In this document: one piece after another, positions 5,415 through 21,293 of the stretch | How positions within the stretch are numbered: the first letter of the stretch is position 1 | How the letters are laid out: the number at the start of each line of letters is the position of its first letter | Origin: an uncultured delta proteobacterium | GTDB taxonomy: Bacteria; Desulfobacterota; Binatia; HRBIN30; BPIQ01 | NCBI GenBank assembly: GCA_963761335.1 | Contig: CAVXGR010000018.1 | Location: 800,001 to 864,000 of the forward strand | Length of the DNA stretch: 64,000 nt | Direction: 5' to 3' | The notes under the pieces: generated by a model | Databases searched by the model: none | Told to the model about the DNA's origin: nothing | Seen by the model: the letters and a program-made list of their open reading frames with translations, nothing else | Position numbers and translations under genes: made by a program

Positions 5415-8400
5415 ATGAAGCAGCGAATCTCAGCAGGGGCCCGTGCGCTGTTGCTGGTTGTGGTTTCGGCGGCGCTGCTTGCCGGTTGCGGCGGCAGCGC
5501 CGAGGTGCTGGTCACTCAGCCGGCGCCGTTGACGGTTGCCGGGCGCGTGCAGCTGCCGCCGGCGTCCTTTGCGCAGGCGCCGTCTTGGCTGCGCCGCTTC
5601 GCGGAGCTGGTTGTCGCCCGGGCCGAGGCCTTGATCGGCGTGGCGCCGGCGCCGAACGTGGGAGTTGTGGTCGTCGGCGTCTCCGACTCGGACCTCGCCT
5701 TTGGAGACGTGACGGCGCTGCCGGCAGTCGGCACCGGGTTCACCGACAGCGAAGGTCTCTACTCGGTGCCGGTCGGAGAGCTGGCCTTTGACGGATGCAA
5801 CGGCGACGGGCAGCGGATCCTCGCCTATACTCAGGCCGGGGGTCTGACCCGCGCTCTGGCGTTTCGGGAGACCAACGTCGATATCGACGCCAGCAGCGAA
5901 GCCGTCGTGCGACTGGTCGCCGAGCGGATTGCCGCAAACCCTCAGCTGAGCGTCTGCGACCTCTCGGACAGCGAGATCGAGAGCATTCTCATCGCCGTCG
6001 CCAATGCCAGCCTCGAGGTCTCCGGTGCCACGGCGGCCGAGATCAACGACAATGCCTTTGCGGCAGCGGCCGCGGATGCCACCGTCAACGCCACTCTCGA
6101 CTCCGCCTTCGGGGTGATCACGTCACCGACGCCGACGTCGACGCCGACCGGGACGAGGACCGCGGGAACGGCGTCGCCGACTGCGACGGCGACTGAGACG
6201 GCAGTCGAGTCGCCGACGGCGACACCGGCCGAGTCGGCGACCGCGACCCCGATTGCGGAAACCGCGACGCCGTCGGTGCCGGCGACCGCGAGCGCGACTT
6301 CGATCCCCACCTTCACGCGCACCCCCACCTCGCCGGCTTTCACTCCGACTTCGACGCGCACGGCGAGCGCCATGCCTTCGCCGACCCTCACCCAGGTGGA
6401 GTCGACCCCGACGCCAACCATGGTGAGCAATCCGTCGACGCCGACGGAGACGGCGCCGCTGCCCACCGTGACCAGCCCGCCGACCGCGCCTCCCACGATC
6501 ACGGCGACGGCGGAAGTGACGCCGACTCAAGCGGCGGGTCTGCCGTCGATCGTCCTGGGGGCGGCGAACGGCGAGCCGGGAAGCACCGTTTCGGTCCCGG
6601 TGTCGCTCGACAGCAACGGCATCGACATCATCTTGATCGGGCCGCTCGAGTTCACCTTCGACGATGCCGTGCTCACCTTCAACAGCTGTACCTCGTCGCT
6701 GCCCGCCGACTACACGGTCCAAGCGGCCAACCCCGAGACGGGATTGGTGCGCATGGTCATCCAGTCGGGGGCGAATCTCGTCATCCCGAACGGAGAGCTC
6801 GCCACCTGCAGCTTCACCATCTCGGCATCGGCTCAGCTCGGTACCTCATCGACGCTGGCCTTTCAGGCGGCGGGGATGAGCGACGCCGACTTCAACGATA
6901 TAACGGGCACAGGGGATGACGGCACCGTCGACATCGGCGCCGCCGAGACGCCGACTCCAACGACGACGAGCACCGTCGCGCTTGCGAGTGAAACGCCGAC
7001 GCACACCGCGGAGCCCACCGCGACGGCGACGGTTGCGGCAGCGACGGCGACGCCCACCGAGATGATGGCGAGCGGGCCGCAGATCGTGATCGACTCCGGG
7101 TCCGCGGCTCCGGGGGATGTGGTGAGCGTGGCGGTATCGCTGCAGAGCAACGGCACGAGCATCATTCTGATTGGGCCCCTGGAGTTCACCTTCGATCCGG
7201 CGGTGCTGACCTTCGGCAACTGCACATCGTCACTTTCAGCCGACTACACGGTCCAGGCGGCCAATCCCGACACGGGGTTGGTGCGCATGGTGATTCAGTC
7301 GGGGGCGAACCTGGTGATCCCGGACGGCCAGCTCGCCACTTGCAGCTTCACGGTGTCGGCCTCGGCCGATCTCGGAGCCATGACGCCACTGAGCTTCCAG
7401 GCGGCGGGCATGAGCGACGTCGATTTCAACGACATCACCGCGGGCGGCGTGAGCGGAGAGGTGACCGTGGGTAGTGCCGAGGCTTCGCCGACAGCCACCG
7501 AGCCGCCGGCGACGGCGACCGCGACCCAGCCGGCGGCGACCGCGACACCGACCGAGACCTCGGTACCGGCGACCGCGACTGAGACCTCGGGACCGCCTAC
7601 GGCGACGTCGGTACCGGCGACCGCCACCAGCACCGTGGCGCCGCCGGCTACCGAGACCTCGACTCCCGTTCCTCCGGCCACCGGGACGGCCACCGCCGTG
7701 CCGCCGAGCACCACGCCGACCGAGATGATGGCGAGTGGACCACAGATCGTCATCGGAGCCGGGGCCGCTGCTCCGGGCGAGATGGCGAGCGTGCCGGTTT
7801 CGCTGCAGAGCAACGGGCCCAGCATCATCCTCATCGGGCCGCTGGAGCTCACCTTCGATCCGGCGGTGCTGACCTTTGAGAGCTGCACCACGTCGCTGTC
7901 GGCCGACTATACGGTTCAGGCCGTCAGTCCCGAGACCGGGTTGGTACGCATGGTGATCCAGTCGGGGGCGAACCTGGTGATTCCGGATGGCGAGCTCGCC
8001 ACCTGCAGCTTCACGGTTTCCGCTTCGGCGGCTCTCGGGACGATGACGCCGTTGAACTTCCAGGCGGCGGGCTTGAGCGACGCCGACTTCAACGACCTCT
8101 CCGCCAGTGGCGTCAACGGCGAGGTGATGGTCGGCGGGGCAGCGGCAACGCCGACGGAGACCGAGGAGATTGCCACCGCGACGGCGACCCAGCCGCTGGC
8201 GACGCCGACGGAAACCGTGGTGCCGGCAACGGCGACCCAGCCCGCGGCGACGGCCACGGCCACGGAGACTTCGGTACCGCCGACGGCGACGAGCACAGCC
8301 CCGCCACCGGCCACCGAGACCAGCACGGCGGTCCCAGCGACGGAGACGCCGACGCAGCCATCGGGACCGCTGATCTCCATCGGCTCCGGGTCGGGTATGC

Positions 8401-8768
8401 CCGGCGACGTGGGGGTTCCGGTGCCGATCTCCTTCAACGGCGCCGGCACCAACATCATTTTGATTGCGCCTTTGGAGTTCACCTTCGACCCGGCAGTGCT
8501 GGAATACGTGACCTGTACGTCTTCCTTGCCTGCCGACTACACGGTCCAGTCGGCGTCGCCGGATCCGGGACTGGTGCGAATGGTGGTTCAGTCAGGGGCG
8601 AACCTGGTGATCCCGGCGGGACAGATCGCCACCTGCAGCTTCACGATCTCCGCCTCGGCTTCAGGGGGCACGATGACGCCGCTGACGTTCCAGGCCGCAG
8701 GGATGAGCGACGAGGAGTTCAACGACCTCTCCGCCAGCGGAATCAATGGGAGTATCGCAGTTCAATAG
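5415..8768 (+). CDS. Lipoprotein scaffoldin-like protein B: paralog of 2753 with 4 cohesin-like domains
   Basis: Lipobox LAGC; N-domain similar to 2753 (VQLPPAS.AQAPSW.RR.AE.VVARAEAL, SEAVVRLVAERI); cohesin-like repeats ~6546-6935, 7080-7469, 7743-8132, 8370-8765; same gtgtgaATGaagc start context. Confidence 0.8.
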   Translation: MKQRISAGARALLLVVVSAALLAGCGGSAEVLVTQPAPLTVAGRVQLPPASFAQAPSWLRRFAELVVARAEALIGVAPAPNVGVVVVGVSDSDLAFGDVTALPAVGTGFTDSEGLYSVPVGELAFDGCNGDGQRILAYTQAGGLTRALAFRETNVDIDASSEAVVRLVAERIAANPQLSVCDLSDSEIESILIAVANASLEVSGATAAEINDNAFAAAAADATVNATLDSAFGVITSPTPTSTPTGTRTAGTASPTATATETAVESPTATPAESATATPIAETATPSVPATASATSIPTFTRTPTSPAFTPTSTRTASAMPSPTLTQVESTPTPTMVSNPSTPTETAPLPTVTSPPTAPPTITATAEVTPTQAAGLPSIVLGAANGEPGSTVSVPVSLDSNGIDIILIGPLEFTFDDAVLTFNSCTSSLPADYTVQAANPETGLVRMVIQSGANLVIPNGELATCSFTISASAQLGTSSTLAFQAAGMSDADFNDITGTGDDGTVDIGAAETPTPTTTSTVALASETPTHTAEPTATATVAAATATPTEMMASGPQIVIDSGSAAPGDVVSVAVSLQSNGTSIILIGPLEFTFDPAVLTFGNCTSSLSADYTVQAANPDTGLVRMVIQSGANLVIPDGQLATCSFTVSASADLGAMTPLSFQAAGMSDVDFNDITAGGVSGEVTVGSAEASPTATEPPATATATQPAATATPTETSVPATATETSGPPTATSVPATATSTVAPPATETSTPVPPATGTATAVPPSTTPTEMMASGPQIVIGAGAAAPGEMASVPVSLQSNGPSIILIGPLELTFDPAVLTFESCTTSLSADYTVQAVSPETGLVRMVIQSGANLVIPDGELATCSFTVSASAALGTMTPLNFQAAGLSDADFNDLSASGVNGEVMVGGAAATPTETEEIATATATQPLATPTETVVPATATQPAATATATETSVPPTATSTAPPPATETSTAVPATETPTQPSGPLISIGSGSGMPGDVGVPVPISFNGAGTNIILIAPLEFTFDPAVLEYVTCTSSLPADYTVQSASPDPGLVRMVVQSGANLVIPAGQIATCSFTISASASGGTMTPLTFQAAGMSDEEFNDLSASGINGSIAVQ

Positions 8769-8909: not shown

Positions 8910-10544
8910 ATGTTTCGGAAATTGACACTTACGAATGCGCTCGCGGCCCTGGCAGGCGTGGCCTGCATCTTGGCGCTGCCGGCGATGGTCGCGGCGCAGT
9001 GCCTTGGCGACTGCGACGCCAACAACAGCGTCACCGCTTCCGACCTGGCAAAGATCAATCAGCTGCTGCTCAAGTGCCCGTGCTCCGGTGGGTTGCTGGG
9101 GGGCGATCCGGCTGGCTGCGCCGGCGGCGGCACCATCACCTGCGCCGCCGCGGATAAGAACATGAACAACTGCATCACGGCCAGCGAGAAGGCGCAGATC
9201 AACGCGCAGGTGCTGAATAACGGCTCGACGTGCCCGGCGCCTCCCACCCCGACGCCGGTCATGAATTGCCCGCAGGACTTCACCGTGCAGCTGGCGGAGG
9301 CCAGCCAGGCGCGCATTCAGACTCTTGGCGTGGGTCTGTTCCCGACGACGGGGGGGTTGGCGCTGCAGGGAACCCTGAGGGTGGAGGTCTCGTGCCCGGA
9401 CGCCAACGGCATCGCCACCATCACCATGCCCGCGGCCGATGCCCACCTCCAGCCGGTCGATCTGGGCGCGCTGGGCACGGCCTGCGTCGAGCTGAGCGCC
9501 GACGCCGTTGGGACAGTCGATTGCGACGGTGGGTCGACACCGGGGCCGGACTTCACCTTCACCAAGGATCACGATACCAACCCGGCGCACACGATTGCCG
9601 GCTCGCCGCCCGGCCTGCCGAACGATGTGGAGTGCGACGACGTCTTCACGTTCGGCGGCCTGCCTCCCTCGTATGCCTGTCAGGAAGGGAAGAAGAGGTG
9701 TCTGGGGGGCACGAACTTCGGCATGCTCTGCACGACGGATGCCGGCTGTCCGGGCTCGACCTGCGTGGCGTGCTCGAGCGGAACCCGTTCGAACAGCACC
9801 TGCGACAGCCCCACGGTGATCACCGAGAGCGGCACGTTCCGGCCGGGAGACGTTGTTCTGACCACGGTGCAGAAGATCACGGTCGTGGCGCCGGCAGCGT
9901 ACGGGGCGGACGGGATACCGTGCACGGCGGACGACGGCGATCCGTCGCTGCCGCCGACCGAGTCCCCGGCGATCTTCAGCACGGGCCATGTGCAGGCAGA
10001 GGTGTGGGACGCGACCACGGCGGCAGGCGGGACGCTGAGCAAGAACAACCGCATCGGCACCGGGTCGTTGACTTCGTGCGAGACGAATGCGGACTGCCCG
10101 TCCATCTGTCTTGGAGGGAGCAACGCCGGTGGGCAGTGCTTCGTGGCCGGCGACTGTCCTGGAGGGAGCTGCCCGCGCACCCGGATCTGCATCGGAGGCA
10201 CCAACAATCTCCAACCGTGCCTCTACAACTCGGATTGCCCCGGCAGCGGCGCCTATTGCAACGACGTCGGCAATCTCCTGGAGACCTGCTACGAGGGCGA
10301 TCCACCGCTCGGCGGGGGGGCGCAGACGCTGTGCGGCACGGGACACGCGCAGCCGTGCTACTGCCGCGCCAAATGCAGTATGGCGGGCTGCGTCAACGGG
10401 ACCACTGGCAACCCGGGGAGCTGTGCGGCGGTGTTCAGCGCCTCTCCCAATCTGTCGGGCCTCAGCCTCGGTGGAGCCTTCCCGACACTCGACTTCACGC
10501 TCGGCGGCGACGCGGTCGTCTACTTCCAGTTCGTCGTGCAGTGA
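8910..10544 (+). CDS. Secreted protein with N-terminal dockerin-like domain and Cys-rich C-terminal module (copy 1)
   Basis: Signal peptide ending VAA-Q; duplicated Ca-loop/helix motifs GDCDANNSVTASDLAKINQLLL and ADKNMNNCITASEKAQINAQVL; PPTPTP linker; 425-aa module from CPQDFTVQL. Confidence 0.75.
   Translation: MFRKLTLTNALAALAGVACILALPAMVAAQCLGDCDANNSVTASDLAKINQLLLKCPCSGGLLGGDPAGCAGGGTITCAAADKNMNNCITASEKAQINAQVLNNGSTCPAPPTPTPVMNCPQDFTVQLAEASQARIQTLGVGLFPTTGGLALQGTLRVEVSCPDANGIATITMPAADAHLQPVDLGALGTACVELSADAVGTVDCDGGSTPGPDFTFTKDHDTNPAHTIAGSPPGLPNDVECDDVFTFGGLPPSYACQEGKKRCLGGTNFGMLCTTDAGCPGSTCVACSSGTRSNSTCDSPTVITESGTFRPGDVVLTTVQKITVVAPAAYGADGIPCTADDGDPSLPPTESPAIFSTGHVQAEVWDATTAAGGTLSKNNRIGTGSLTSCETNADCPSICLGGSNAGGQCFVAGDCPGGSCPRTRICIGGTNNLQPCLYNSDCPGSGAYCNDVGNLLETCYEGDPPLGGGAQTLCGTGHAQPCYCRAKCSMAGCVNGTTGNPGSCAAVFSASPNLSGLSLGGAFPTLDFTLGGDAVVYFQFVVQ
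9267..10544 (+). repeat. 1278-bp coding repeat, copy 1
   Basis: Colinear and equal in length to 14804-16081 and 17712-18989; about 30-35 aa differences from copies 2/3 by manual comparison. Confidence 0.95.
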
Positions 10545-10552
10545 CGGTGTCC

Positions 10553-10584
10553 GCGGGGGAGCCGGGTCGTCCCGGCTCCCCCGC
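10553..10584 (+). terminator. 14-bp perfect hairpin after the scaffoldin/dockerin genes
   Basis: gcgggggagccggg-tcgt-cccggctcccccgc followed by cattctt. Confidence 0.7.
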
Positions 10585-10650
10585 CATTCTTGGCGTCGCC
10601 GTTCTTGGCGTCGCCGGTTGCGCCCGACGCCATGTGAGGAAAACTATGGC

Positions 10651-10680
10651 TTGACACCTCGGCGGTCAGGGGACTAGAAG
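10651..10680 (+). promoter_or_regulatory. Putative sigma70 promoter
   Basis: TTGACA-18 nt-TAGAAG in the long intergenic region upstream of 10975. Confidence 0.35.
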
Positions 10681-10974
10681 GCGCTATAGGGCCATCAGGG
10701 GAATAGTCTCCAGAGGAGTACTCTGAACATTCTATGGAAGGTGCTCCGGCCTCTGGCCGGTTCCCTCGTGCATATGAGCGCGGGGCAGGGAGGAAAGCTC
10801 ATGAAGCGCGTCGTGTCGACAGGGGAGGGTTCCCGACACGCCAGATGTTCGCATCCCGCTCCCGCGCCGTCTCAATGGGCGCAGATTTTCCGTCGCTTTG
10901 CGGTAACGCATGCGATATAGTCAGTCCAGCGCGCTGAGGGTTGCCCGATTTCGGGCGCCGAAAAAAGGGGGAAG

Positions 10975-12885
10975 ATGATGTTCGCCGGCCGCAGTCGCTA
11001 CCGCAGGATTCTCATCGGAGCACTTTTCGTGGCGGGCCTCGGCGCTCTCGTGTTGGCGCCGTCCGTCGAAGCCCAGTTCGTTTACGTGAACAACAACCAG
11101 GCGCCCAGCAACTCGGTCAGCGGCCTGGCGGTCGACGGCAGCGGCGCCCTCTCTGCCGTCTCCGGCTCGCCGTTCGCGACCGGGGGAAGCGGTTCCTTCT
11201 CGTCCAATACCGGCGCCATCGACGTGGTGGTGACGGCGAACCGCCTCTACGCGACCAACTCGATCAGCAACTCCATCGCCGCCTTCGACATCAATGTCGA
11301 CGGGTCGCTCAGCACGATTCCCGGCTCGCCGTTCCCGACCCTCGGCAATCAGCCGAACGGCATCGCCGTCAACGACGGCGGCACGCGGCTCTTCGTCGCC
11401 CTCTTCAACAGCAACAGCGTCGCGGTCTTCAATATCGCCTCGAACGGCGCCCTGACCCATGTCTCGGGCTCCCCGTTCAGTCTCGGAACCGCGAACCCTC
11501 TGGACCTGGCAATCGACTCGGCCAACTCGCTTCTCTTTGCCAGCCACAACGCCGCGGGCGTGGGTGTGTACACCATCGGCGTCGGCGGTTCCCTCACCCC
11601 GATAGGTGGATCTCCCTTCGCCGGGGGCGGCGGTGATGAGCGCGGCCTTGGAGTCAACGGCGGCAAGACCCGGCTGTATCTGGCCGATCACGACGTGAAC
11701 ACCGTGAGCGGCTTCGACATCGGCGGCGGCGGCACGTTGACGGCGGTACCGGGCTCACCCTTCGTCGCCGGTACGGGTCCGACGGACGCGCTCTTCCATC
11801 CGTCGCTCTCGGTCCTCTACGTCACCAACGAGAGCAGCTCCAACATCTCCGCGTACGACATCGCCCCGGTCGGCACCCTGAGTGCTCTCGGCGGGTCGCC
11901 CTTCGCCTCCGGAGGGACGGGTGCCGGTGGGATGATCATCGACGCCACCAATGAGCGCCTCTTCGTCATCAATCGAACCTCTCACAGCGTGAGCTCGTTC
12001 GACATCGACGGCAGCGGCGGCCTGACCGCCGTCGCCGGCTCGCCGTTCGCCACCGGCGCCGCTTCGGGGACGCCCTTGTCGATCGCCTTGGCCGTCATCG
12101 ATACGGACGGCGATGGGGTTCCCAACGGCACGGACAACTGCCCGCTCATCTCCAATCCCGCGCAGACGGATACCGACGGCGACGGGATCGGTGACCTCTG
12201 CGACTCCGAGTGTACTGCCACAGCCCCTGGAGTATGTGTCCCGGGGCGGGGAAAACCCGCCACCGAGTGCTATCATGAGTTCATGGTGATCACCGACCCG
12301 CCACCCGCGGAGAATCCCAAGACCAACCTCCCCAACTTCCGCATCAACTGCCAGAACGGCAATTCCAGCTGCGACTTCGACAACGACGCGACTGATGACC
12401 ACTGCACCTTCAACGTGCGGGTATGCTTCAACAACAGCGATCCGCGGTTCCCGCTGTGCTCGCCGCGGGACGTGGCCACCTTTGACCTGAGGAAGCCGCG
12501 GCCGGGCGCGGCGCACAACGACGTATTCGACACCGCCAACATCAGCGAGTTCGAGCGCGTGGTCAACGGCGGCACCTGCGACAACGACGCGACGCGCAGC
12601 TGCCTCACGGCAGCCGACTGCACGGGCGGTGGGCTGTGCACGGATCCGCCCATCATTGGCACGGAGTTCGTCCATGGCCGCAACACGCTCCTTGCCGGCA
12701 GCCCGAATGGCACCTTGGACAACTGCTCCGACATCATGGAGCTGCAGGTGCCGCTGCGGCTGACGGGTGTGGGATACAAGAAGAAGACCAAGATCTTTCG
12801 GGTGAAAACGCGAACCTCGCCGCCGCCGAACAAGGGCGAGGTGGACACGGACGTGCTGAAGCTCACATGCGTTCCTGCGCCGTGA
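10975..12885 (+). CDS. Secreted lactonase/Pgl-like beta-propeller + thrombospondin type-3-like Ca repeat + Cys/basic 'DTD-x-L-x-L-x-C' domain
   Basis: Signal ending VEA-Q; seven GSPF-containing blades; [36 protein letters not shown]-terminal domain shared with 12953 and 16119. Confidence 0.8.
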
Positions 12886-12952
12886 GGCGCAGGCAGCGCG
12901 CCTGAGCCCGAGCACGAGATTCGTTTTCGCAAAGAATGAAGGGGAGCCACTC

Positions 12953-15900
12953 ATGAAGCGAATCATCGTTTCGACGGGAATCGCCGCGCTGTTGCTCGGC
13001 GCGCTGACAACACCAGCTCGAGCCATTCTGTTCGGCAGCATTCCCAACGCAAGTGGCTCCGATCTGGTGACCATCGATCAGGTCAACGGAACCGCCACGC
13101 TGGTGGGCGCCATCGGCTTCAAGGCGGTGAAGGGGCTTGCCGTGCGGCCATCGGACGGCACCATGTTTGCTTCCACCGGCTATGTCGCCGGCGGCACCAA
13201 CATCGGAAAGATCCTCACCGTCAACACCATGGGCGGCGTCGGAGCGGCGCTGCCGTCGCAGGATCAGGACGGCATCACGGCCTTGGCCTTCTCTCCGGGC
13301 GGTACCCTGTATGCCACCTGCCGTTGGTTCAACACCGACCACCAGCCGGACGTGCTGTGCACGATCAACCAGCTCGACGGGTCGGCGACCCCCGTGGATC
13401 AGTTTCAGGCGCTCGACCCCAATTTCCTGGTCGAGGGATTCGACGGCCTGGCGTTTGACTCGGGCGGAACCCTGTATGCGTCGACCAACAACTTCACCGC
13501 CGGTGAGCCGCAGCTGTACACGGTCAACCCCGCCACGGGCGTGGCCACCGTGGTTGGTCCGATTCGCACGGGTGGCGGGGTGCAACTGAGCGCCGGAGTC
13601 GTCGACATCCGCTTCATCGGCAGCACTCTCTTCGGTGCGACCTCGGATGGGCGCATCATCACCATCGACAAGGCGAGCGGCATCTACACCGTCGTCGGCC
13701 TTACCGGTCTCGGAAATGCCGAGGGCCTCGCCGAGCTCATCGTGAACACCCCGACGCCTACCATCCCGACGCCTCCGACGGGCACTGCCCCGCCGACGGC
13801 GACGCCGACCCCCAAGCCGTGTGCCGGAAAGCTTGCGCCCGTAAATCCATGCGCTCCCGGCCGCGGTTCGAAGAAGACAGATTGCTTCATGGAATGGCTG
13901 GTGACCCCCGTCCCCGGACTCGACCGCAAGGGGCTGCCCGTCAAGAAGGTGATCTGCTACGAGGGCGATCCAGCCTGTGACATCGACACTGACCTCGGCA
14001 ACAAAGAGTGCACCTTCCAGGCGCAGATCTGCCTGAATAACAACGATCCTCGCTTCCCAGAGTGCCAGCCACTGGACATTACCTCGTTCGAGGTGAAGAA
14101 GCCGAATCCCGATAAGCCGAAGGACGCCACCGACACCGCCAATGCGGCGACTCTCGAGGATCAGGCCGCCAACGGCTTCGGGATCACCGTGGTTCGCAAG
14201 AAGCTGGTAATCTCTCTCGAGTCCTCCGACTCGACTCCCGACGACTGCAGTCCAGCGCTCCCCTTGCGCGTGCCGCTGAAGGTCACCAACTCGGGCAAGA
14301 TCCGCAAGTTTCACAAGACATTCCGCATTCGCGGAACCACGTCTCTGCCGACGCGGCCCAATGTCGACACCGATGTGCTGCATCTGGAATGCCGGCCGAG
14401 CACCTGCGGCAACGGCATCATCGAGACCGATCACGAGGAGTGCGACGACGGCAATCGCCTGCCGGGCGACGGCTGCGACCAGGGTTGCCACATCGAGCCG
14501 ACGCCAGCGCCGACCAATACGCCGGTATCGACGAGCACCAGCGCGCCTACCGGCACCCCTCTACCGGAGACTCCGACAAGCACTCCGGTGATCACGGCTA
14601 CCAACACCGCGGTGCCGGCCACGGCGACGTTCACTGGTACATCGACGCCGATTGGGCCGACGTCTACCGCGACCGAGACGCCGATCCCGGCAGACACGGC
14701 AACGGTCACCGAGACGCCGATCCCGACGCAGACGGGGACGATCACGGAGACGCCGACGATCACGGAGACGGCGACGATCACGCCGACGGGGGCGCCGATC
14801 ACCTGTCCGCAGGACTTCACCGTGCAGCTGGCGTCGGCCAGCGAGGCGCGCATTCAGACGCTGGGTGTGGGTCTGTTCCCGACGACGGGGGGGTTGGCGC
14901 TGCAGGGGAGCCTGAGGGTGGAGGTTTCCTGCCCGGACGTGAACGGCATCGCCACCATCACCATGCCCGCGGCCGATGCCGACCTCCAGCCGGTCGATCT
15001 CGGCGCGCTGGGCACGGCCTGCGTCGAGCTGAGCGCCGACGCCGTTGGGACAGTCGATTGCGACGGTGGGACGACACCGGGGCCGGACTTCATCTTCACC
15101 AAGGATCACGATACCAACCCGGCGCACACGATTGCCGGCTCGCCGCCCGGCCTGCCGAACGATGCGGGGTGCGACGACGTCTTCACGTTCGGCGGCCTGC
15201 CTCCCTCGTATGCCTGCCTGGAAGGGACGAAGAGATGCCTGGGGGGCACGAACCTCGGCATGGTGTGCACGACGGATGCCGGCTGTCCGGGCTCGACCTG
15301 CGTGGCGTGCTCGAGCGGAACCCGTTCGAACAGCACCTGCGACAGCCCCACGGTGATCACCGAGAGCGGCACGTTCCGGCCGGGAGAGATCGTTCTGACC
15401 ACGGTGCAGAAGATCACGGTCCTGCCGCCGTCGGCGTACGGAGCCGACGGGATACCCTGCACGGCAGACGACGGCGCTCCGTCGCTGCCGCCGACCGAGT
15501 CCCCGGCGATCTTCAGCACGGGCCTCGTGCAGGCGAAGGTGTGGGACGCGACCACGGCGCAAAACGGGACGCTGAGCAAGAACAACCGCATCGACACCGG
15601 GTCGTTGACCTCGTGCGCGACGAATGCGGACTGCCCGTCTATCTGTATTGGGGGGAGCAACGCCGGTGGGCAGTGCTTCGTGGCCGGCGACTGTCCTGGG
15701 GGGAGCTGCCCGCGCACCCGGATCTGCATCGGGGGCACCAACAATCTCCATCCGTGCTTATACAACTCGGATTGCCCCGGCAGCGGCGCCTATTGCAACG
15801 ACGTCGGCAATCTCCTGGAGACCTGCTACGAGGGCGATCCACCGCTCGGCGGGGGGGCGCAGACGCTGTGCGGCCCGGGACACGTGGAGCCGTGCTACTG

Positions 15901-16081
15901 CCGCGCCAAATGCGGCTCGGCGGGCTGCGTCAACGGGACCACGGGCAACCCGGGGAGCTGCGCGGCGGTGTTCAGCGCCTCTCCCAGTCTGTCGGGGGTG
16001 GTCCTCGGCGGCGCCTTCCCGACGCTGGACTTCCAGCTCGGCGGCGACGCCGTCGTCTACTTCAACTTCGCCGTGCAGTGA
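12953..16081 (+). CDS. Secreted modular protein: beta-propeller, DTD-domain, Myxococcus Cys-rich repeat, Pro/Thr linker, Cys-rich module (copy 2)
   Basis: Signal ending ARA; repeated GLAF..GGTLYA / L.T.N..TG.AT.VG blades; CGNGIIETDHEECDDGNRLPGDGCDQGC; C-terminal module. Confidence 0.8.
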   Translation: MKRIIVSTGIAALLLGALTTPARAILFGSIPNASGSDLVTIDQVNGTATLVGAIGFKAVKGLAVRPSDGTMFASTGYVAGGTNIGKILTVNTMGGVGAALPSQDQDGITALAFSPGGTLYATCRWFNTDHQPDVLCTINQLDGSATPVDQFQALDPNFLVEGFDGLAFDSGGTLYASTNNFTAGEPQLYTVNPATGVATVVGPIRTGGGVQLSAGVVDIRFIGSTLFGATSDGRIITIDKASGIYTVVGLTGLGNAEGLAELIVNTPTPTIPTPPTGTAPPTATPTPKPCAGKLAPVNPCAPGRGSKKTDCFMEWLVTPVPGLDRKGLPVKKVICYEGDPACDIDTDLGNKECTFQAQICLNNNDPRFPECQPLDITSFEVKKPNPDKPKDATDTANAATLEDQAANGFGITVVRKKLVISLESSDSTPDDCSPALPLRVPLKVTNSGKIRKFHKTFRIRGTTSLPTRPNVDTDVLHLECRPSTCGNGIIETDHEECDDGNRLPGDGCDQGCHIEPTPAPTNTPVSTSTSAPTGTPLPETPTSTPVITATNTAVPATATFTGTSTPIGPTSTATETPIPADTATVTETPIPTQTGTITETPTITETATITPTGAPITCPQDFTVQLASASEARIQTLGVGLFPTTGGLALQGSLRVEVSCPDVNGIATITMPAADADLQPVDLGALGTACVELSADAVGTVDCDGGTTPGPDFIFTKDHDTNPAHTIAGSPPGLPNDAGCDDVFTFGGLPPSYACLEGTKRCLGGTNLGMVCTTDAGCPGSTCVACSSGTRSNSTCDSPTVITESGTFRPGEIVLTTVQKITVLPPSAYGADGIPCTADDGAPSLPPTESPAIFSTGLVQAKVWDATTAQNGTLSKNNRIDTGSLTSCATNADCPSICIGGSNAGGQCFVAGDCPGGSCPRTRICIGGTNNLHPCLYNSDCPGSGAYCNDVGNLLETCYEGDPPLGGGAQTLCGPGHVEPCYCRAKCGSAGCVNGTTGNPGSCAAVFSASPSLSGVVLGGAFPTLDFQLGGDAVVYFNFAVQ

Positions 16082-16084
16082 TGC
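14707..16084 (+). repeat. Coding repeat copy 2 (1278-bp module 14804-16081 plus ~100 bp of linker)
   Basis: Nearly identical to the sequence 2908 bp downstream, including TGATGC at the stop. Confidence 0.95.
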
Positions 16085-16118
16085 GTACTTGCGCCGAGCT
16101 GGGATCGAGGCCAAGTCG

Positions 16119-18989
16119 ATGAGAAAGCTGTGGGGGACGGTTCTCCTCGCCGTGCTTGCCGGTCCCGGGATCATGGCGGCGCACGCGGCCACTGTGACGT
16201 TGTTTCCCATGGCGGATACGCACCTCCGCAAAGGCTCGGCAAATACCCCCGAGGGCGGAGACGATTTCCTGCGAGTGCAGCAAACAGGTGACAACCGCGC
16301 TCTGGTTCTCTTCGACCAGACGCAAATCGCCAATGCCGTCGGCAGCGGGACGCTGCTCTCGGCGAATCTCCTGCTTTACGTGGAGTCCAGCACGGGCTGG
16401 TCGAGCAGCGGCCGCACGGTGGACATGCATCGCATCACGGGCTCGTGGACGGAGGACGGCGCCACTTGGAACTGCGCCGACGACACCAATACGCAGAACT
16501 CGCAACCCGACTGTAATCCCGAATGGGATGGCGGCACGTTCGATCCGACGCCGACCGACACGCTCCTGCACACCAACGATCTCTCGGGGTTCGTTCAGTT
16601 CAACGTCACCAGTGACGTGGCCGCCTTCCTCAGTGGGACTCCGAACGAGGGCTGGCTTCTCAAGAAGACGGATGAGACTCTCGGCGGAGGTGTCCGCTAC
16701 ACCTCGCGGGAAGGCGTCGCCAGCCAAGAGCCGCGCCTGGTCCTGGCGTACACCACCTCCGGTGGCGGTGCCCCTGGCACGTGCGACCAGAATGCGCCGG
16801 ACAACCTCTGTGTCCCCGGTGGCGGATCCAAGGCCAAAGACTGCAACTTCGAGTGGCGCGTCTTTGCACCGGCATCGCTGACCAGAAATGGAATCCCCAA
16901 GAAGAAGTTCATCTGCTACGAGGGTGATCCCGAGTGCGATGTCGATCCTGACATCGACAATCACAGCTGCACGTTCGATGTCTCGATGTGCATCAACAAC
17001 GAGGACCCACGGCTGCCGACGTGTACGCCATCGAACCTCGCCGTCGTCGAGCTGAAGAAGCCAAATCCGCGCAGGCCCAAGGACGACGCCGACGCGGCCG
17101 CCATTGCCTTGCTCGAGGGCGAGGCCGGCAGCAGCGGTGGCTTCGGCGTGACCGTCGTGCGCAGGAATCAGCTGGTCTTCAGCGGGTCTCCGAACAACAC
17201 GCCGAATCTCTGCAGCGGATTGCTCGACATTCCGGTTCCCTTGCGCAATCCCGCCATCGGTGTCTATCGCAAGGGACACAAAACGCTGCGCGTCCGCACC
17301 GTGACTTCCTTCAGCGACGTCGACACCGACAGCGTGCGCTTGGAGTGCTGGCCGAGCCTGTGCGGCAACAACGTCATCGATCCCAACGAAGAGTGTGACG
17401 ACGGCAATCGAACACCGGGAGACGGATGCAATCAGGGATGCAGGCTCGAGGCGGTCACTCCCACGCCGAGCACCTCGCCCACGGTCAGCCAGACGGCGAC
17501 GGCTTCCGCTACGGTGGCGCCTTCGAGTACGGTAACCGCTACGGACACGTCGACACCGAGCGGACCCACGTCTACCCCGACCGAGACGCCGATCCCGACG
17601 GCGACGGGAACCATCACCGAGACGCCGATCCCGACGCAGACGGGGACGATCACGGAGACGCCGACGATCACAGAGACGCCGACGATCACGCCGACGGGGG
17701 CGCCGATCACCTGTCCGCAGGACTTCACCGTGCAGCTGGCGTCGGCCAGCGAGGCGCGCATTCAGACGCTGGGTGTGGGTCTGTTCCCGACGACGGGGGG
17801 GTTGGCGCTGCAGGGGAGCCTGAGGGTGGAGGTTTCCTGCCCGGACGTGAACGGCATCGCCACCATCACCATGCCCGCGGCCGATGCCGACCTCCAGCCG
17901 GTCGATCTCGGCGCGCTGGGCACGGCCTGCGTCGAGCTGAGCGCCGACGCCGTTGGGACAGTCGATTGCGACGGTGGGACGACACCGGGGCCGGACTTCA
18001 TCTTCACCAAGGATCACGATACCAACCCGGCGCACACGATTGCCGGCTCGCCGCCCGGCCTGCCGAACGATGCGGGGTGCGACGACGTCTTCACGTTCGG
18101 CGGCCTGCCTCCCTCGTATGCCTGCCTGGAAGGGACGAAGAGATGCCTGGGGGGCACGAACCTCGGCATGGTGTGCACGACGGATGCCGGCTGTCCGGGC
18201 TCGACCTGCGTGGCGTGCTCGAGCGGAACCCGTTCGAACAGCACCTGCGACAGCCCCACGGTGATCACCGAGAGCGGCACGTTCCGGCCGGGAGAGATCG
18301 TTCTGACCACGGTGCAGAAGATCACGGTCCTGCCGCCGTCGGCATACGGAGCCGACGGGATACCCTGCACGGCAGACGACGGCGCTCCGTCGCTGCCGCC
18401 GACCGAGTCCCCGGCGATCTTCAGCACGGGCCTCGTGCAGGCGAAGGTGTGGGACGCGACCACGGCGCAAAACGGGACGTTGAGCAAGAACAACCGCATC
18501 GACACCGGGTCGTTGACCTCGTGCGCGACGAATGCCGACTGCCCGTCCATCTGTCTTGGGGGGAGCAACGCCGGTGGGCAGTGCTTCGTGGCCGGCGACT
18601 GTCCTGGGGGGAGCTGCCCGCGCACCCGGATCTGCATCGGGGGCACCAACAATCTCCATCCGTGCTTATACAACTCGGATTGCCCCGGCAGCGGCGCCTA
18701 TTGCAACGACGTCGGCAATCTCCTGGAGACCTGCTACGAGGGCGATCCACCGCTCGGCGGGGGGGCGCAGACGCTGTGCGGCACGGGACACGCGCAGCCG
18801 TGCTACTGCCGCGCCAAATGCGGCTCGGCGGGCTGCGTCAACGGGACCACGGGCAACCCGGGGAGCTGCGCGGCGGTGTTCAGCGCCTCTCCCAGTCTGT
18901 CGGGGGTGGTCCTCGGCGGCGCCTTCCCGACGCTGGACTTCCAGCTCGGCGGCGACGCCGTCGTCTACTTCAACTTCGCCGTGCAGTGA
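16119..18989 (+). CDS. Secreted modular protein: DNRLRE/CBM96-like domain, DTD-domain, Myxococcus Cys-rich repeat, Pro/Thr linker, Cys-rich module (copy 3)
   Basis: ATG 16119 gives signal MRKLWGTVLL...AHA; pattern ADTHL...NRALVLFD...SWTE..ATWN...FNVT.DV...NEGWLLK...SRE...PRLVL fits DNRLRE domains. Confidence 0.8.
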   Translation: MRKLWGTVLLAVLAGPGIMAAHAATVTLFPMADTHLRKGSANTPEGGDDFLRVQQTGDNRALVLFDQTQIANAVGSGTLLSANLLLYVESSTGWSSSGRTVDMHRITGSWTEDGATWNCADDTNTQNSQPDCNPEWDGGTFDPTPTDTLLHTNDLSGFVQFNVTSDVAAFLSGTPNEGWLLKKTDETLGGGVRYTSREGVASQEPRLVLAYTTSGGGAPGTCDQNAPDNLCVPGGGSKAKDCNFEWRVFAPASLTRNGIPKKKFICYEGDPECDVDPDIDNHSCTFDVSMCINNEDPRLPTCTPSNLAVVELKKPNPRRPKDDADAAAIALLEGEAGSSGGFGVTVVRRNQLVFSGSPNNTPNLCSGLLDIPVPLRNPAIGVYRKGHKTLRVRTVTSFSDVDTDSVRLECWPSLCGNNVIDPNEECDDGNRTPGDGCNQGCRLEAVTPTPSTSPTVSQTATASATVAPSSTVTATDTSTPSGPTSTPTETPIPTATGTITETPIPTQTGTITETPTITETPTITPTGAPITCPQDFTVQLASASEARIQTLGVGLFPTTGGLALQGSLRVEVSCPDVNGIATITMPAADADLQPVDLGALGTACVELSADAVGTVDCDGGTTPGPDFIFTKDHDTNPAHTIAGSPPGLPNDAGCDDVFTFGGLPPSYACLEGTKRCLGGTNLGMVCTTDAGCPGSTCVACSSGTRSNSTCDSPTVITESGTFRPGEIVLTTVQKITVLPPSAYGADGIPCTADDGAPSLPPTESPAIFSTGLVQAKVWDATTAQNGTLSKNNRIDTGSLTSCATNADCPSICLGGSNAGGQCFVAGDCPGGSCPRTRICIGGTNNLHPCLYNSDCPGSGAYCNDVGNLLETCYEGDPPLGGGAQTLCGTGHAQPCYCRAKCGSAGCVNGTTGNPGSCAAVFSASPSLSGVVLGGAFPTLDFQLGGDAVVYFNFAVQ

Positions 18990-18992: not shown

Positions 18993-19133
18993 ATCTCAGA
19001 GAGGTGTCTCGCCGTCCCACCATGGGGCGGCGGGATGCCTTTCTTGCCCGTGGAGGGGGTCCCGCGCCTCGTTGTGCCCTTCTGCCGCGCGTGTTACTCA
19101 CCGTCGAGTAACTCGTTCGCCTGCTTCCCATCT

Positions 19134-21293
19134 ATGTCGCGACGCCGTCAGACCGGTCCCGCTGCGCGGGAGATTGATGTTCCCGCACACCGGCCGGCGG
19201 TACCGAGTGCACGGCGATGGTGGCAGCTGCCGCTCCTGATCGGAGCCATAGTCGCGATCGCTGTCGCTATCTGCTGCCTCAGCGTGGTGAGCGTTTCGAC
19301 CAACGACCTGTGGATTCATCTCAAGACCGGCGAGCTGATCTTGCAGACCGGCTCAGTTCCGCACAAAGACCCGTACTCGTTCACGGCAGCGGGACACGAC
19401 TACATCGCCCACGAATGGCTGGCCGGCGTGCTCTTCTACGGCGCATATGCCGTTCTCGGCGTTCCGGGGCTCATCCTGTTCAAGACCCTGATCATCCTCA
19501 TTGCGGCAGCTCTCCTGGGGCTCGTCTGTTTCACACATCGCGATCATCTGGCCATCGTGCTCGTGGCGTTCGGTGCCATGGCCTACATCGCGGCCGCGCG
19601 TTTTCTTGTCCGTCCGCACATCTTCTCGTATCTGATGCTGTGCGCCTACCTGTTCGTGTTCTTTCGGTATCGAGACGGAGGGCGGAATCGGCTGTGGCTC
19701 GCTGCCGTAGTTCCCCTGCAGGTGCTGTGGGCCAATCTCCACGGAGGATTCATTCAGGGGCTCGCACTTTTGGTCGTGTTCGCCATGGGAGAAGCGGTGG
19801 CATGGGGGCGAGCACGCCTTCTCGGCATCCGACGGGAGGATGCGGTGTCCTCCGGCGATCTGACTCTCCTGGCTGTCCTTCCGCTGGTGGCCACCGCCGT
19901 CTCGCTGATCAACCCATATGGTTTCCGCCTGCTGGAATTTCCTTTCCAGCTGACGGGAATGGAGGTGTTCATGAAGGACATCTTCGAGTGGCTCCCGGCA
20001 TTCAACGACTCCTTCGACGGCTCCTACATGTTCGCCGGCTATTGGATCTGGATCACGGTGCTGTTCGCGTCGTTCCTGTTCGGCAACGAGAAGAACGCCC
20101 CGGTCCCCTGGCGTGCTTGGGTTCAGCCTCTCAACCTCATCTTTCTGGGGGCGACGGCCATCTTCTCGTACTGCTTCATGTGGGCCCAGGGCACCCTGGA
20201 AGGCCACGTCGTCATGTGGACGGCAGTGGCCTTGTTGTTCTGTGCCGTCAACGTCCATCGTCTCGATCCCACCGAGGTGGCGATCGTGGCGATGATGTTT
20301 GCCATGTCCATGAAGCACAACCGCGCGATCACCGAAGCGGTGATCGTCACGACGCCGATTCTGACCCACAACCTGAGCCGTCTCGCTGACGAGCTCGGGC
20401 GCCGCCAGCGGACCGCGATCGTCCGAGTCGGTGGATCGCGGCCGGTAACGGTGGTTGCCCTGTCCTTGCTGCTCCTTGCGGAAGGGGCACACGCCCAGGT
20501 GTTCGGCTACTACTACAGTCGCTTCAGCAGGCGCGAGGGCGGGCTCGGCATTGCCGATACCATGCCCGTCTGCTCTGCCGATTATGTCGTCCGCCGGCAG
20601 CTGTCGGGCAACGCATTCACCTCGTACAACACGGCGGGGCTTCTGATCTTTCGCCGATACCCCGATGTCAAGGTCAGCATGGATTCGCGCAATGAAGTGT
20701 ACGGCGCGGAGCTATACCAAGAGTTCAAGAGCAGCCGGCAGTCTGCCGCGGCGATGAAGGCGTACCTCGACAAGCACCGGGTAGATTTCTTCTTCGTGAA
20801 CGCCGTGGATCTCTCTCCGCAAGCGAGCCAGTATCTGTTGGGCAGCGGCGAGTGGGTACAGGTATATTTCGACCATCAGGTGGTCATCCTGGTCCGCAAC
20901 GAGCCCCGTTTCGCGGAGGTCATTCGCGAGGACGCCTACTCCTCGATCTTCCCGAGCATCAATCGGCAGAACTTCGTGCCGCCGGCGCAGGCGGAGGACT
21001 ATCTCCGGGAGGCCACCCGCGCTGCAAGCCTGTGCGACCGCGCCTGGCTGCCTCGCTGGTATCGAGCGGTGGCACTGGCGCGGTTGGGTCGCTACCGAGA
21101 GGCGACGGAGGCGGTCCAGGATCTCCTGAAGGTGCGCCCGGATGTCTCCTTTGCCTGGACTCTCCTCGGAAACCTGTACGTCACGATGCAGGAGAAAGAG
21201 AAGGCGATCGACGCTTACCAAGAGGCGTTGGCCTGGAACCCCAGCTACGAGCCGGCGCATCAGGGTCTCGAAAAGCTGAGATCGCGCAGGTGA
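19134..21293 (+). CDS. Polytopic membrane protein, GT-C-like glycosyltransferase with C-terminal TPR repeats
   Basis: DLWIHLKTG...DPYSF...HEWL, RPHIFS, LWANLHGGF, NPYG motifs; many TM segments; TPR-like AWTLLGNLY...AIDAYQEAL..NP. Start may be 19035. Confidence 0.65.
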   Translation: MSRRRQTGPAAREIDVPAHRPAVPSARRWWQLPLLIGAIVAIAVAICCLSVVSVSTNDLWIHLKTGELILQTGSVPHKDPYSFTAAGHDYIAHEWLAGVLFYGAYAVLGVPGLILFKTLIILIAAALLGLVCFTHRDHLAIVLVAFGAMAYIAAARFLVRPHIFSYLMLCAYLFVFFRYRDGGRNRLWLAAVVPLQVLWANLHGGFIQGLALLVVFAMGEAVAWGRARLLGIRREDAVSSGDLTLLAVLPLVATAVSLINPYGFRLLEFPFQLTGMEVFMKDIFEWLPAFNDSFDGSYMFAGYWIWITVLFASFLFGNEKNAPVPWRAWVQPLNLIFLGATAIFSYCFMWAQGTLEGHVVMWTAVALLFCAVNVHRLDPTEVAIVAMMFAMSMKHNRAITEAVIVTTPILTHNLSRLADELGRRQRTAIVRVGGSRPVTVVALSLLLLAEGAHAQVFGYYYSRFSRREGGLGIADTMPVCSADYVVRRQLSGNAFTSYNTAGLLIFRRYPDVKVSMDSRNEVYGAELYQEFKSSRQSAAAMKAYLDKHRVDFFFVNAVDLSPQASQYLLGSGEWVQVYFDHQVVILVRNEPRFAEVIREDAYSSIFPSINRQNFVPPAQAEDYLREATRAASLCDRAWLPRWYRAVALARLGRYREATEAVQDLLKVRPDVSFAWTLLGNLYVTMQEKEKAIDAYQEALAWNPSYEPAHQGLEKLRSRR

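Follow-up and report, generated by a model that had tools for sequence, protein, structure and literature searches.

A cysteine-rich domain with a predicted barrel fold, homogenised across gene ends and encoded beside lipoprotein cohesin scaffoldins in an uncultured member of the Binatia

Why do several genes that begin differently end in nearly the same cysteine-rich module, and what might such a shared ending do? This question is raised by a 64,000-nucleotide stretch of DNA from an uncultured soil bacterium, a delta proteobacterium of the class Binatia (phylum Desulfobacterota; assembly GCA_963761335.1, contig CAVXGR010000018.1, positions 800,001 to 864,000), which we call the window; in our own contig numbering it corresponds to C18:800001-864000 of a genome of 6.26 Mb in 29 contigs (G000). 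Three genes in the window, referred to here as genes 1 to 3, terminate in copies of a 425-residue module, and a fourth copy is found on another contig. Our analysis indicates that the module belongs to a real, uncatalogued, class-restricted domain family for which a barrel fold is modelled, and that recent gene conversion or recombination between 3' ends has kept the copies alike. As to its role, we infer, at about even confidence, that the module is a binding payload displayed on a cohesin scaffold. The copies in the window, and a short tract within them that bears on exchange, are as follows.

9267-10544, plus strand: module copy 1 (c1), 425 codons and a stop codon
14804-16081, plus strand: module copy 2 (c2), from repeat comparison
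17712-18989, plus strand: module copy 3 (c3), from repeat comparison
10338-10350, plus strand: tract of c1 with module sites 1072, 1082 and 1084, reading TGHAQP in c1 and c3 and PGHVEP in c2 and c4 (15875-15887 in c2, 18783-18795 in c3)

A repeat search and direct comparison agree that the three copies are ungapped and 1,278 nucleotides (nt) long, and that each forms the 3' end of an open reading frame (ORF), stop codon included. The frames run from 8910 to 10544 (gene 1, 544 amino acids), from 12953 to 16081 (gene 2, 1,042 amino acids) and from 16119 to 18989 (gene 3, 956 amino acids), where the start of gene 3 was set at MRKLWG within a longer frame, 15624-18989. Copies c2 and c3 differ at 8 nt (99.4% identity), and c1 differs from c2 at 83 nt (93.5%) and from c3 at 81 nt (93.7%). 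The corresponding protein differences over 425 residues are 4 for c2 and c3, 38 for c1 and c2, and 34 for c1 and c3, which makes c1 91-92% identical to the other two. A first-pass annotation of this DNA had reported three 1278-bp copies of equal length at 9267, 14804 and 17712, with four amino acid differences between copies 2 and 3 and about 90% identity for copy 1, and all of these statements hold.

The fourth copy, c4, was found by a search of the window's own genome at C12:828348-829625, in what we call the C12 gene; 7 nt separate it from c2 and 11 nt from c3, and c1 differs from the other copies at 81-85 positions. The boundaries of the shared DNA are sharp, in that identity in 30-nt windows of the flanks drops to about 20-40%, the chance level for DNA of 66% G+C. 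The homology of c1 begins at the first Cys codon, that of c2, c3 and c4 extends 140-160 nt further upstream into a Pro/Thr (PT) linker, and the homology of all four ends at the stop codon. As a separate observation, G+C-rich inverted repeats lie directly 3' of the stops of c1 (10545-10604) and c4 (C12:829626-829685); they are terminator-like by sequence, and beyond that are not homologous to each other.

Two sequences that are 99.4% identical and just 2.9 kb apart invite the suspicion that an assembler has placed one gene end several times, whether for copies 2 and 3 or for all of them. The public read data that we consulted, Logan contigs from four soil-metagenome runs of one study, consist of short contigs only, none of which spans a copy. 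One of these (X1 record 4, 607 nt, 15412-16018) is moreover a mosaic, c4-like at sites 828, 837 and 897 and c3/c1-like at sites 1072, 1082 and 1084, and represents either a further (fifth) population variant or a graph chimera. Against an artefact, however, stand the unique flanks and intact reading frame of every copy, the fixed differences that separate them (7-11 sites among c2-c4, and many more for c1), and the length of the contig that bears the window copies (1.19 Mb). Public contigs that begin in unique DNA also run into or towards the copies: one (X1 record 2, 14573-14980) passes from the unique linker of gene 2 into c2 with 0 differences, and another (17393-17608) reaches the shared linker DNA that precedes c3. 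The distinct flanks, intact frames and fixed differences argue for real copies, and we consider a multiply placed gene end very improbable.

If the copies are real, what has kept them alike? It is well supported that four genes are near-identical at their 3' ends because recent gene conversion or recombination has homogenised those ends. One break point is in PT-linker DNA and the other is at the stop codon: genes 2 and 3 have about 50% amino acid identity in a middle module, then 421 of 425 identical residues in the terminal module, and the switch occurs inside the PT linker. Among the copies, 76 of the 89 variable sites set c1 apart from the other three. The remaining sites include all three possible two-by-two splits, with c1 and c2 opposed to c3 and c4 at site 769, c1 and c4 opposed to c2 and c3 at site 897, and c1 and c3 opposed to c2 and c4 at sites 1072, 1082 and 1084. 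Recombination is needed because no single tree fits all three.

Relatives outside the window's genome give the same picture. The only close relative, P0004 (506 amino acids), is the orthologue of gene 1 and is identical to it at 103 of 109 N-terminal residues (94%), a stretch that takes in the signal peptide; identity falls to 52-59% in the module, which in P0004 has one Cys repeat fewer. Similarly, P0035 is the closest relative of the head of gene 3 (47% identical in its DNRLRE domain), and its family domain falls in a distant clade. A quick IQ-TREE analysis of 67 rows places c1-c4 in one clade (approximate likelihood ratio support, SH-aLRT, 99) with P0004 as its sister (100). Together, these four lines of evidence favour converted or exchanged 3' ends over the duplication of whole genes.

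The synonymous divergence (dS) is 0.012-0.019 among c2-c4 and 0.12-0.13 between these and c1. The claim of recent shuffling or gene conversion that had been made from the sequence is therefore supported by the identity jump in the linker, by the three site splits and by the dS values. The ratio of nonsynonymous to synonymous divergence (dN/dS) between c1 and the other copies is 0.35-0.40, and therefore the module is under purifying selection. What weighs against repeated conversion is that the near-identity could stem from a recent duplication of the 3' ends.

Knowing that the copies are homogenised does not say what they are. The module holds 30 Cys residues, has an isoelectric point (pI) of 4.2 and carries 39 Asp/Glu compared with 15 Lys/Arg. 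It matches no Pfam or NCBIfam family at E<=0.01, and even at E<=10 only Nodulin_late appears (E 1). Searched exhaustively with phmmer, 1.84 billion cluster representatives yield a rare family of 93 proteins at E<=1e-3, of which 54 reach E<=1e-10 and 9 reach E<=1e-30. This search used copy 1 alone and is thus independent of the alignment and profile (A1) that we built from 46 of the family rows. Profile A1 matches 90 of the 93 representatives and matches the four copies at E 1e-89 to 1e-94, the latter partly by construction because the copies supplied 2 of the 46 rows. Seventy of the 90 matching representatives contain the last strand of the domain, and in 66 of these 70 the domain ends within 15 amino acids of the protein C-terminus, usually as GGGFPALD...GDIATTFQFVAQ.

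The distribution of the family is narrow. Within the same order, A1 finds matches in 40 of 41 genomes (a tally that takes in the unpublished G029), mostly several per genome, and in a phylum-wide even sample it finds them in 3 of 151 genomes, all within the same class. The window's own genome has 10 ORFs with the family domain. A contig search with a second profile (A2) adds four weak loci, one of them (L025) labelled Candidatus Binatia. Two metagenome scans returned nothing close, a PDB sequence search with A1 gave 0 matches at E<=1, and neither the module nor the P0026 core domain had a usable match in the ESM Atlas. A search for longer relatives yielded P0100 and P0055 only, and found no orthologues of genes 2-4 (the C12 gene being the fourth). 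The heads of 46 of the 93 representatives were scanned, with DUF4215 found in 13, CBM96, DUF11, DUF7450, cohesin and disintegrin in one each, and no enzyme family in any of the 46.

The family is present neither in Pfam (2025 copy) nor in NCBIfam (June 2026). Literature searches on Binatota or Binatia combined with cohesin, dockerin or secreted/C-terminal domains gave nothing on this system among the matches listed, and a full-text word search of the main Binatota genome paper (PMC8262859) for cohesin, dockerin, secretion, outer membrane and cysteine-rich met no occurrence. One further member in the same genome (C11:126473-127612, minus strand) ends before the last hairpin, its 379-amino-acid frame covering only profile positions 17-259, and is possibly a broken copy.

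An AlphaFold2 model of copy 1 built with the 46-row alignment A1 reached a mean predicted local distance difference test score (pLDDT) of 83.1 and a predicted template modelling score of 0.77; a single-sequence model (pLDDT 38) was unusable. In the former, the core of the module is modelled as an elongated eight-stranded up-and-down beta-barrel. Conservation mapped on the model assigns to the core module residues of about 25-267 and 370-425. The conserved motifs DCDGG, DH-N-T, GLPDDPxCD, CNSP, GPDGxPCTADD and DANN lie mostly between predicted strands, and GGGFPALD and GDIATTFQF are predicted to form the final hairpin. The sequence between the two core segments is an insert.

10068-10376, plus strand: lineage-specific Cys-rich insert in a barrel loop of c1, module residues 268-369 with 14 Cys, from column occupancy

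All four copies have this insert and P0004 has a shorter version of it; in the other 43 aligned relatives its columns are occupied at 10% or less. It is modelled at pLDDT 54-80, and neither Pfam nor NCBIfam matches it at E values up to 0.01. Elsewhere on the same contig, a 419-amino-acid protein (C18:510520-511779, minus strand; L009:544-1803) carries about ten CxGGxNxGxxCxxDxDCPGGxC repeats that resemble the insert. The tail of that protein is MYXO-CTERM-like (18 bits, cut-off 20), and it also gives weak TraA and Myxo_Cys_RPT matches. We considered TraA-type Cys repeats for the module itself and dropped them, since the match is under the cut-off and occurs only in this other protein.

In structure searches the best-scoring matches of the model are known barrels. 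Foldseek returned nothing from the PDB at E<=0.001, and its top rows (pore-forming toxins and class II fusion proteins, template modelling score about 0.1) are noise. VIA-align, run against 48,161 chains and used to re-check the top 994 Foldseek rows, ranks eight-stranded up-and-down barrels first. The outer-membrane barrels OmpA (Z 9.0, 142 residues aligned), NspA (Z 8.9) and OmpW (Z 8.8) head the list, together with the soluble barrel DynF (PDB 6ubl; Z 8.3-8.8, 146-151 residues aligned, root-mean-square deviation 3.1-4.2, 15% identity). Other soluble barrels follow, namely YceI-like polyisoprenoid binders (1wub, 1y0g, 2x34; Z 4.5-6.8) and PsbO (Z about 5). Membership among autotransporter beta-domains was dropped at Z 3.5-3.9. 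Weighing against a specific assignment, Z values of 8-9 equal or only slightly exceed those that the tool describes as common when a model has no clear match, and we therefore claim only the general fold. The possibility, raised in the first-pass annotation, of a known catalytic fold did not materialise in these searches.

The gene neighbourhood bears on what such a domain might do. Two scaffoldin genes are located directly upstream of gene 1, and the relevant features are these.

2753-5341, plus strand: scaffoldin A, a lipoprotein (LAGCGG) with an N-terminal domain of about 230 amino acids, PT linkers and three cohesins (3746-4135, 4259-4642, 4949-5335)
5415-8768, plus strand: scaffoldin B, a lipoprotein (LAGCGG) with an N-terminal domain as in scaffoldin A and four cohesins (6549-6935, 7080-7469, 7743-8129, 8376-8762)
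8910-9266, plus strand: head of gene 1, with signal peptide, Cys-stapled dockerin-like double F-hand (8994-9236) and short PT linker
12953-14803, plus strand: head of gene 2, with signal peptide, DUF4394 propeller, middle Cys module and DUF4215 (about 13820-14500), and PT linker, its final 140-160 nt common to c3 and c4
16119-17711, plus strand: head of gene 3, with signal peptide, DNRLRE/CBM96 domain (about 16212-16745), middle Cys module and DUF4215 (about 16794-17453), and PT linker

The cohesins are identified by Pfam Cohesin (PF00963; E 9.3e-39 over three stretches in scaffoldin A and 5.9e-49 over four in scaffoldin B), and all seven are above the curated cut-off. They are the seven strongest cohesin matches of the genome, which has one more above the cut-off, on contig C7. 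The module genes have signal peptides and the scaffoldins have lipoboxes. Two smaller observations concern the scaffoldins themselves. Their N-terminal domain (2753-3450 and 5415-6120) has no Pfam family and recurs in lipoproteins of genus g4 of the same order, and the cohesin-plus-linker units of scaffoldin B (6481-8607) are direct DNA repeats with 60-82% identity to a reference unit and a spacing of 534-663 nt.

The dockerin-like part of gene 1 comprises about 80 residues in two calcium-loop/helix segments with several cysteines. It matches positions 1-56 of the 57 in Pfam Dockerin_1 (PF00404) at 18.5 bits, under the cut-off of 22.9 (E 0.0023). An alignment with five relatives (A3) shows that residues 30-110 hold the pattern DCDxNxxVxxxD/E-helix twice in tandem, and that D6, D54, N56 and E65 of the alignment are invariant. 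In gene 3, the head matches CBM96 (E 1.4e-11) and DNRLRE_dom (E 3.5e-22) in addition to DUF4215 and myxo_disulf_rpt. DUF4215 (PF13948) scores 30.4 and 32.8 bits in genes 2 and 3 (cut-off 27), and myxo_disulf_rpt (TIGR02232) 43.8 and 48.1 bits (cut-off 20.8). The C12 gene has yet another kind of head, the fourth, made of 'TDLNGDGD' repeats.

The three heads had been described as dockerin-like, beta-propeller and DNRLRE/CBM96-like, and as unrelated to one another. The identities stand, with Dockerin_1 below its cut-off and with DUF4394 as the propeller, whereas the lack of relationship is only partly right because genes 2 and 3 have in common the Cys-rich middle module and DUF4215, at about 50% identity. 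This middle module, of about 190 amino acids, is itself uncatalogued (CYEGDPxCDxD...CxNNxDPRxPxC...KKPxP) and occurs in six ORFs of the genome. In the window it is found at 13820-14380, 16794-17340 and within 10975-12885, and elsewhere in C21:247126-249372, C18:475227-477521 and C12:386219-388096. It precedes DUF4215 in genes 2 and 3, but forms the C-terminal end of the lactonase-propeller protein at 10975-12885.

From this arrangement we envisage the domain as a disulfide- and calcium-stabilised, putative binding module that would be displayed outside the cytoplasm in three interchangeable ways. One would be docking: gene 1 encodes little beyond its dockerin-like head and the module and stands behind the two scaffoldins, which with 3 + 4 cohesins would show up to seven modules on each pair of stalks. 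In relatives, the domain would instead be presented by direct fusion to the same lipoprotein stalk domain. Finally, genes 2 and 3 and the C12 gene would join it in cis to other non-enzymatic heads, and conversion would keep every copy in the cell at one specificity. The docking of gene 1 on the scaffoldins is supported by context, namely gene order and adjacency to seven cohesins; this is the part that survives of the earlier proposal that the dockerin-bearing copy tethers the other copies to the scaffoldins. As to what might be bound, analogy with the DynF and YceI-like barrels suggests a hydrophobic small molecule as a candidate ligand.

The architectures of relatives are informative here. 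Three lipoproteins of genus g4 (L019-L021, 612-659 amino acids) combine a scaffoldin-type N-domain, a PT linker and a terminal family domain and have no cohesin; their N-domain is 31% identical to that of scaffoldin B over 258 amino acids (E 9e-18). Each is a fusion of what is here split between a scaffoldin and gene 1. The order of a cohesin gene followed by a gene with dockerin-like module and family domain is found in the window's genome, in G026:C140 and in G036:C27, the last with four cohesins. Cohesin genes adjoin the same dockerin-like module on other cargo in five more genomes (G003, G018, G024, G020 and G014). In the window's genome at C11:225468, and in L025, the domain lies between DUF4215 and a PT linker that leads to a true C-terminal Dockerin_1 (E 9.7e-8 in L025). 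We read the domain as a payload rather than an anchor because the g4 proteins are already lipid-anchored and because elsewhere the domain is the only cargo of a dockerin. The first-pass annotation had proposed a common C-terminal assembly or export module; as judged from these sequences, the architectures favour a payload on display over a connector.

Several observations weigh against a displayed payload. The dockerin-like head of gene 1 scores under the Pfam cut-off, and the A3 profile, when compared with the PDB, matches calmodulin EF-hands (E 0.004) ahead of the dockerin 2ccl_B (E 0.14). The bias of the domain to the extreme C-terminus, in 66 of 70 representatives, would also suit a sorting or anchoring signal, and in P0041 a cohesin is combined with a terminal family domain, as in anchoring scaffoldins.

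The last two points sustain the main rival, in which the barrel is a C-terminal sorting or anchoring domain that a class-specific export or attachment machinery recognises, or that binds a component of the envelope, so that variable heads are exported or held on the cell in the manner of the C-terminal domains (CTDs) of the type IX secretion system (T9SS) or of SLH modules. The strong terminal bias keeps this alternative alive, as do the conserved final hairpin, the position after PT linkers behind many different heads and the several paralogues per genome throughout the order. Against a sorting domain, the module family provides the sole cargo of dockerin-bearing proteins in gene 1, L014 and G026:C140, is followed by a PT linker and a true dockerin in C11:225468 and L025, and ends lipoproteins that are already lipid-anchored in L019-L021. 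Furthermore, the module matches neither Por_Secre_tail nor any other sorting-signal model in Pfam or NCBIfam, and a partner machinery was not identified, although no link to the T9SS was sought. We judge a sorting or anchoring role unlikely, yet a serious competitor. Less probable still is the model of the first-pass annotation, here extended to the C12 gene: the module would associate with itself, gene 1 would link genes 2 and 3 and the C12 gene to the scaffold, and conversion would preserve matching interfaces. A need for like-with-like binding would account for the homogenisation of four copies on two contigs, and gene 1 has no other cargo; but relatives fuse the domain directly to a stalk or a dockerin, and no second partner gene is apparent in them. 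A homodimer prediction with A1 and two copies of the module scored 0.00 relative to a mark of 0.42, which gives no verdict and counts neither way.

The ranking of structural matches raises one more alternative, that the module is an integral eight-stranded barrel which anchors its heads in the outer membrane in the manner of OmpA, OmpX or NspA, given that OmpA, NspA, OmpW, OprF-N, PagL, Ail and OmpX are all among the top matches. Integral outer-membrane barrels have a C-terminal aromatic beta-signal. The four copies instead end in ...F(N/Q)F(A/V)VQ, and their relatives end in Q in 30 of 93 cases and in F in 2 of 93. The 30 Cys residues, the pI of 4.2 with 39 Asp/Glu, the length of most predicted strands (only 6-8 residues), the internal occurrences of the domain, the lack of a match to any outer-membrane protein family and the equal score of the soluble barrel DynF (Z 8.8) all speak against membrane insertion. 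We rejected it because the module is Cys-rich and acidic, ends in Q, has short strands and can be internal, and regard it as scarcely credible. A more specific form of the displayed payload, which we offer as a long shot, is a fast-evolving specificity module, either a self- or kin-recognition surface or a barrel that captures hydrophobic substrates, shown multivalently on the lipoprotein cohesin scaffold; conversion would hold one specificity per cell as orthologues diverge quickly. If this were true, the locus would represent a concerted-evolution 'identity tag' system in an uncultured class.

How does a displayed payload compare with established systems? The arrangement would work like non-cellulosomal cohesin-dockerin display (PF00963, PF00404), with which it shares repeated cohesins between Pro/Thr linkers, a duplicated F-hand module encoded next door, and a gene order of cohesin followed by dockerin-like cargo that recurs in relatives. 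It is distinct in that its scaffoldins are lipoproteins and its host class is uncultured and probably diderm, that the dockerin-like module is N-terminal, Cys-stapled and below the Pfam cut-off, and that the cargo is a new, non-enzymatic barrel rather than a glycoside hydrolase. The T9SS CTDs of Bacteroidota (Por_Secre_tail) resemble the family in being beta-rich, in ending many unrelated secreted proteins and in having several paralogues per genome. They are roughly 80-100 residues long, however, and the family domain spans 250-425 residues, can be internal and is the sole cargo of dockerin proteins.

Among barrels, DynF and the YceI-like proteins share the overall elongated up-and-down form, but there is no sequence relation, and 30 Cys, conserved acidic loops and long Cys-rich inserts set the module apart. 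The small outer-membrane barrels (OmpA N-domain, OmpX, Ail, NspA and OmpW) rank highest in the structural comparison (Z 7.4-9.0 over 134-147 residues), but the module differs from them in being Cys-rich, acidic, short-stranded, without a terminal aromatic residue and able to be internal. The cargo proteins of Slam and the type XI secretion system (TbpB, HpuA, fHbp and hemophilin) likewise pair a conserved barrel at the C-terminus with an N-terminal part that varies, and their surface lipoprotein barrels resemble the module only at Z 4.3-5.2. A search of the genome for Slam (PF04575) gave no match, which says nothing because 14 control genomes were equally silent.

To our knowledge, cohesin-dockerin systems are understood almost only as the cellulosomes of Firmicutes. 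The host class is uncultured and globally distributed, and the locus offers a compact, testable case in which two lipid-anchored scaffolds with seven cohesins accompany a minimal dockerin-like cargo that carries an uncatalogued barrel. The presence of the same domain on at least three other heads, homogenised by conversion, makes it a natural experiment in the exchange and synchrony of the parts of modular surface proteins. The family has 93 cluster representatives and no Pfam model, and defining it would give several secreted proteins in each genome of the order an annotation.

Two further genes of the window have parts in common with genes 1 to 3.

10975-12885, plus strand: secreted protein with lactonase-type propeller, TSP3 repeat and Cys-rich middle module (Pfam Lactonase and TSP_3)
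488-1855, plus strand: lipoprotein (LSGC) with PT linker, DUF4215 (by DUF4215/myxo_disulf_rpt match) and a divergent C-terminal family domain ending in GDIAVCGKFVAQ at the stop codon

The first of these has no C-terminal family domain, and the middle module of gene 2 matches it at E 5.5e-31 (phmmer). The second matches the family profile at 26.4 bits, over profile positions 43-314 and up to its last residue. In the closest paralogue of the 488-1855 protein, at C24:93840-94916 of the same genome, a Cys-stapled dockerin-like head replaces the lipobox, and the frame appears to break off early. Downstream of gene 3, the product of the gene at 19035-21293 is a polytopic membrane protein that has a TPR region at its C-terminus, TPR families being its only matches in Pfam.

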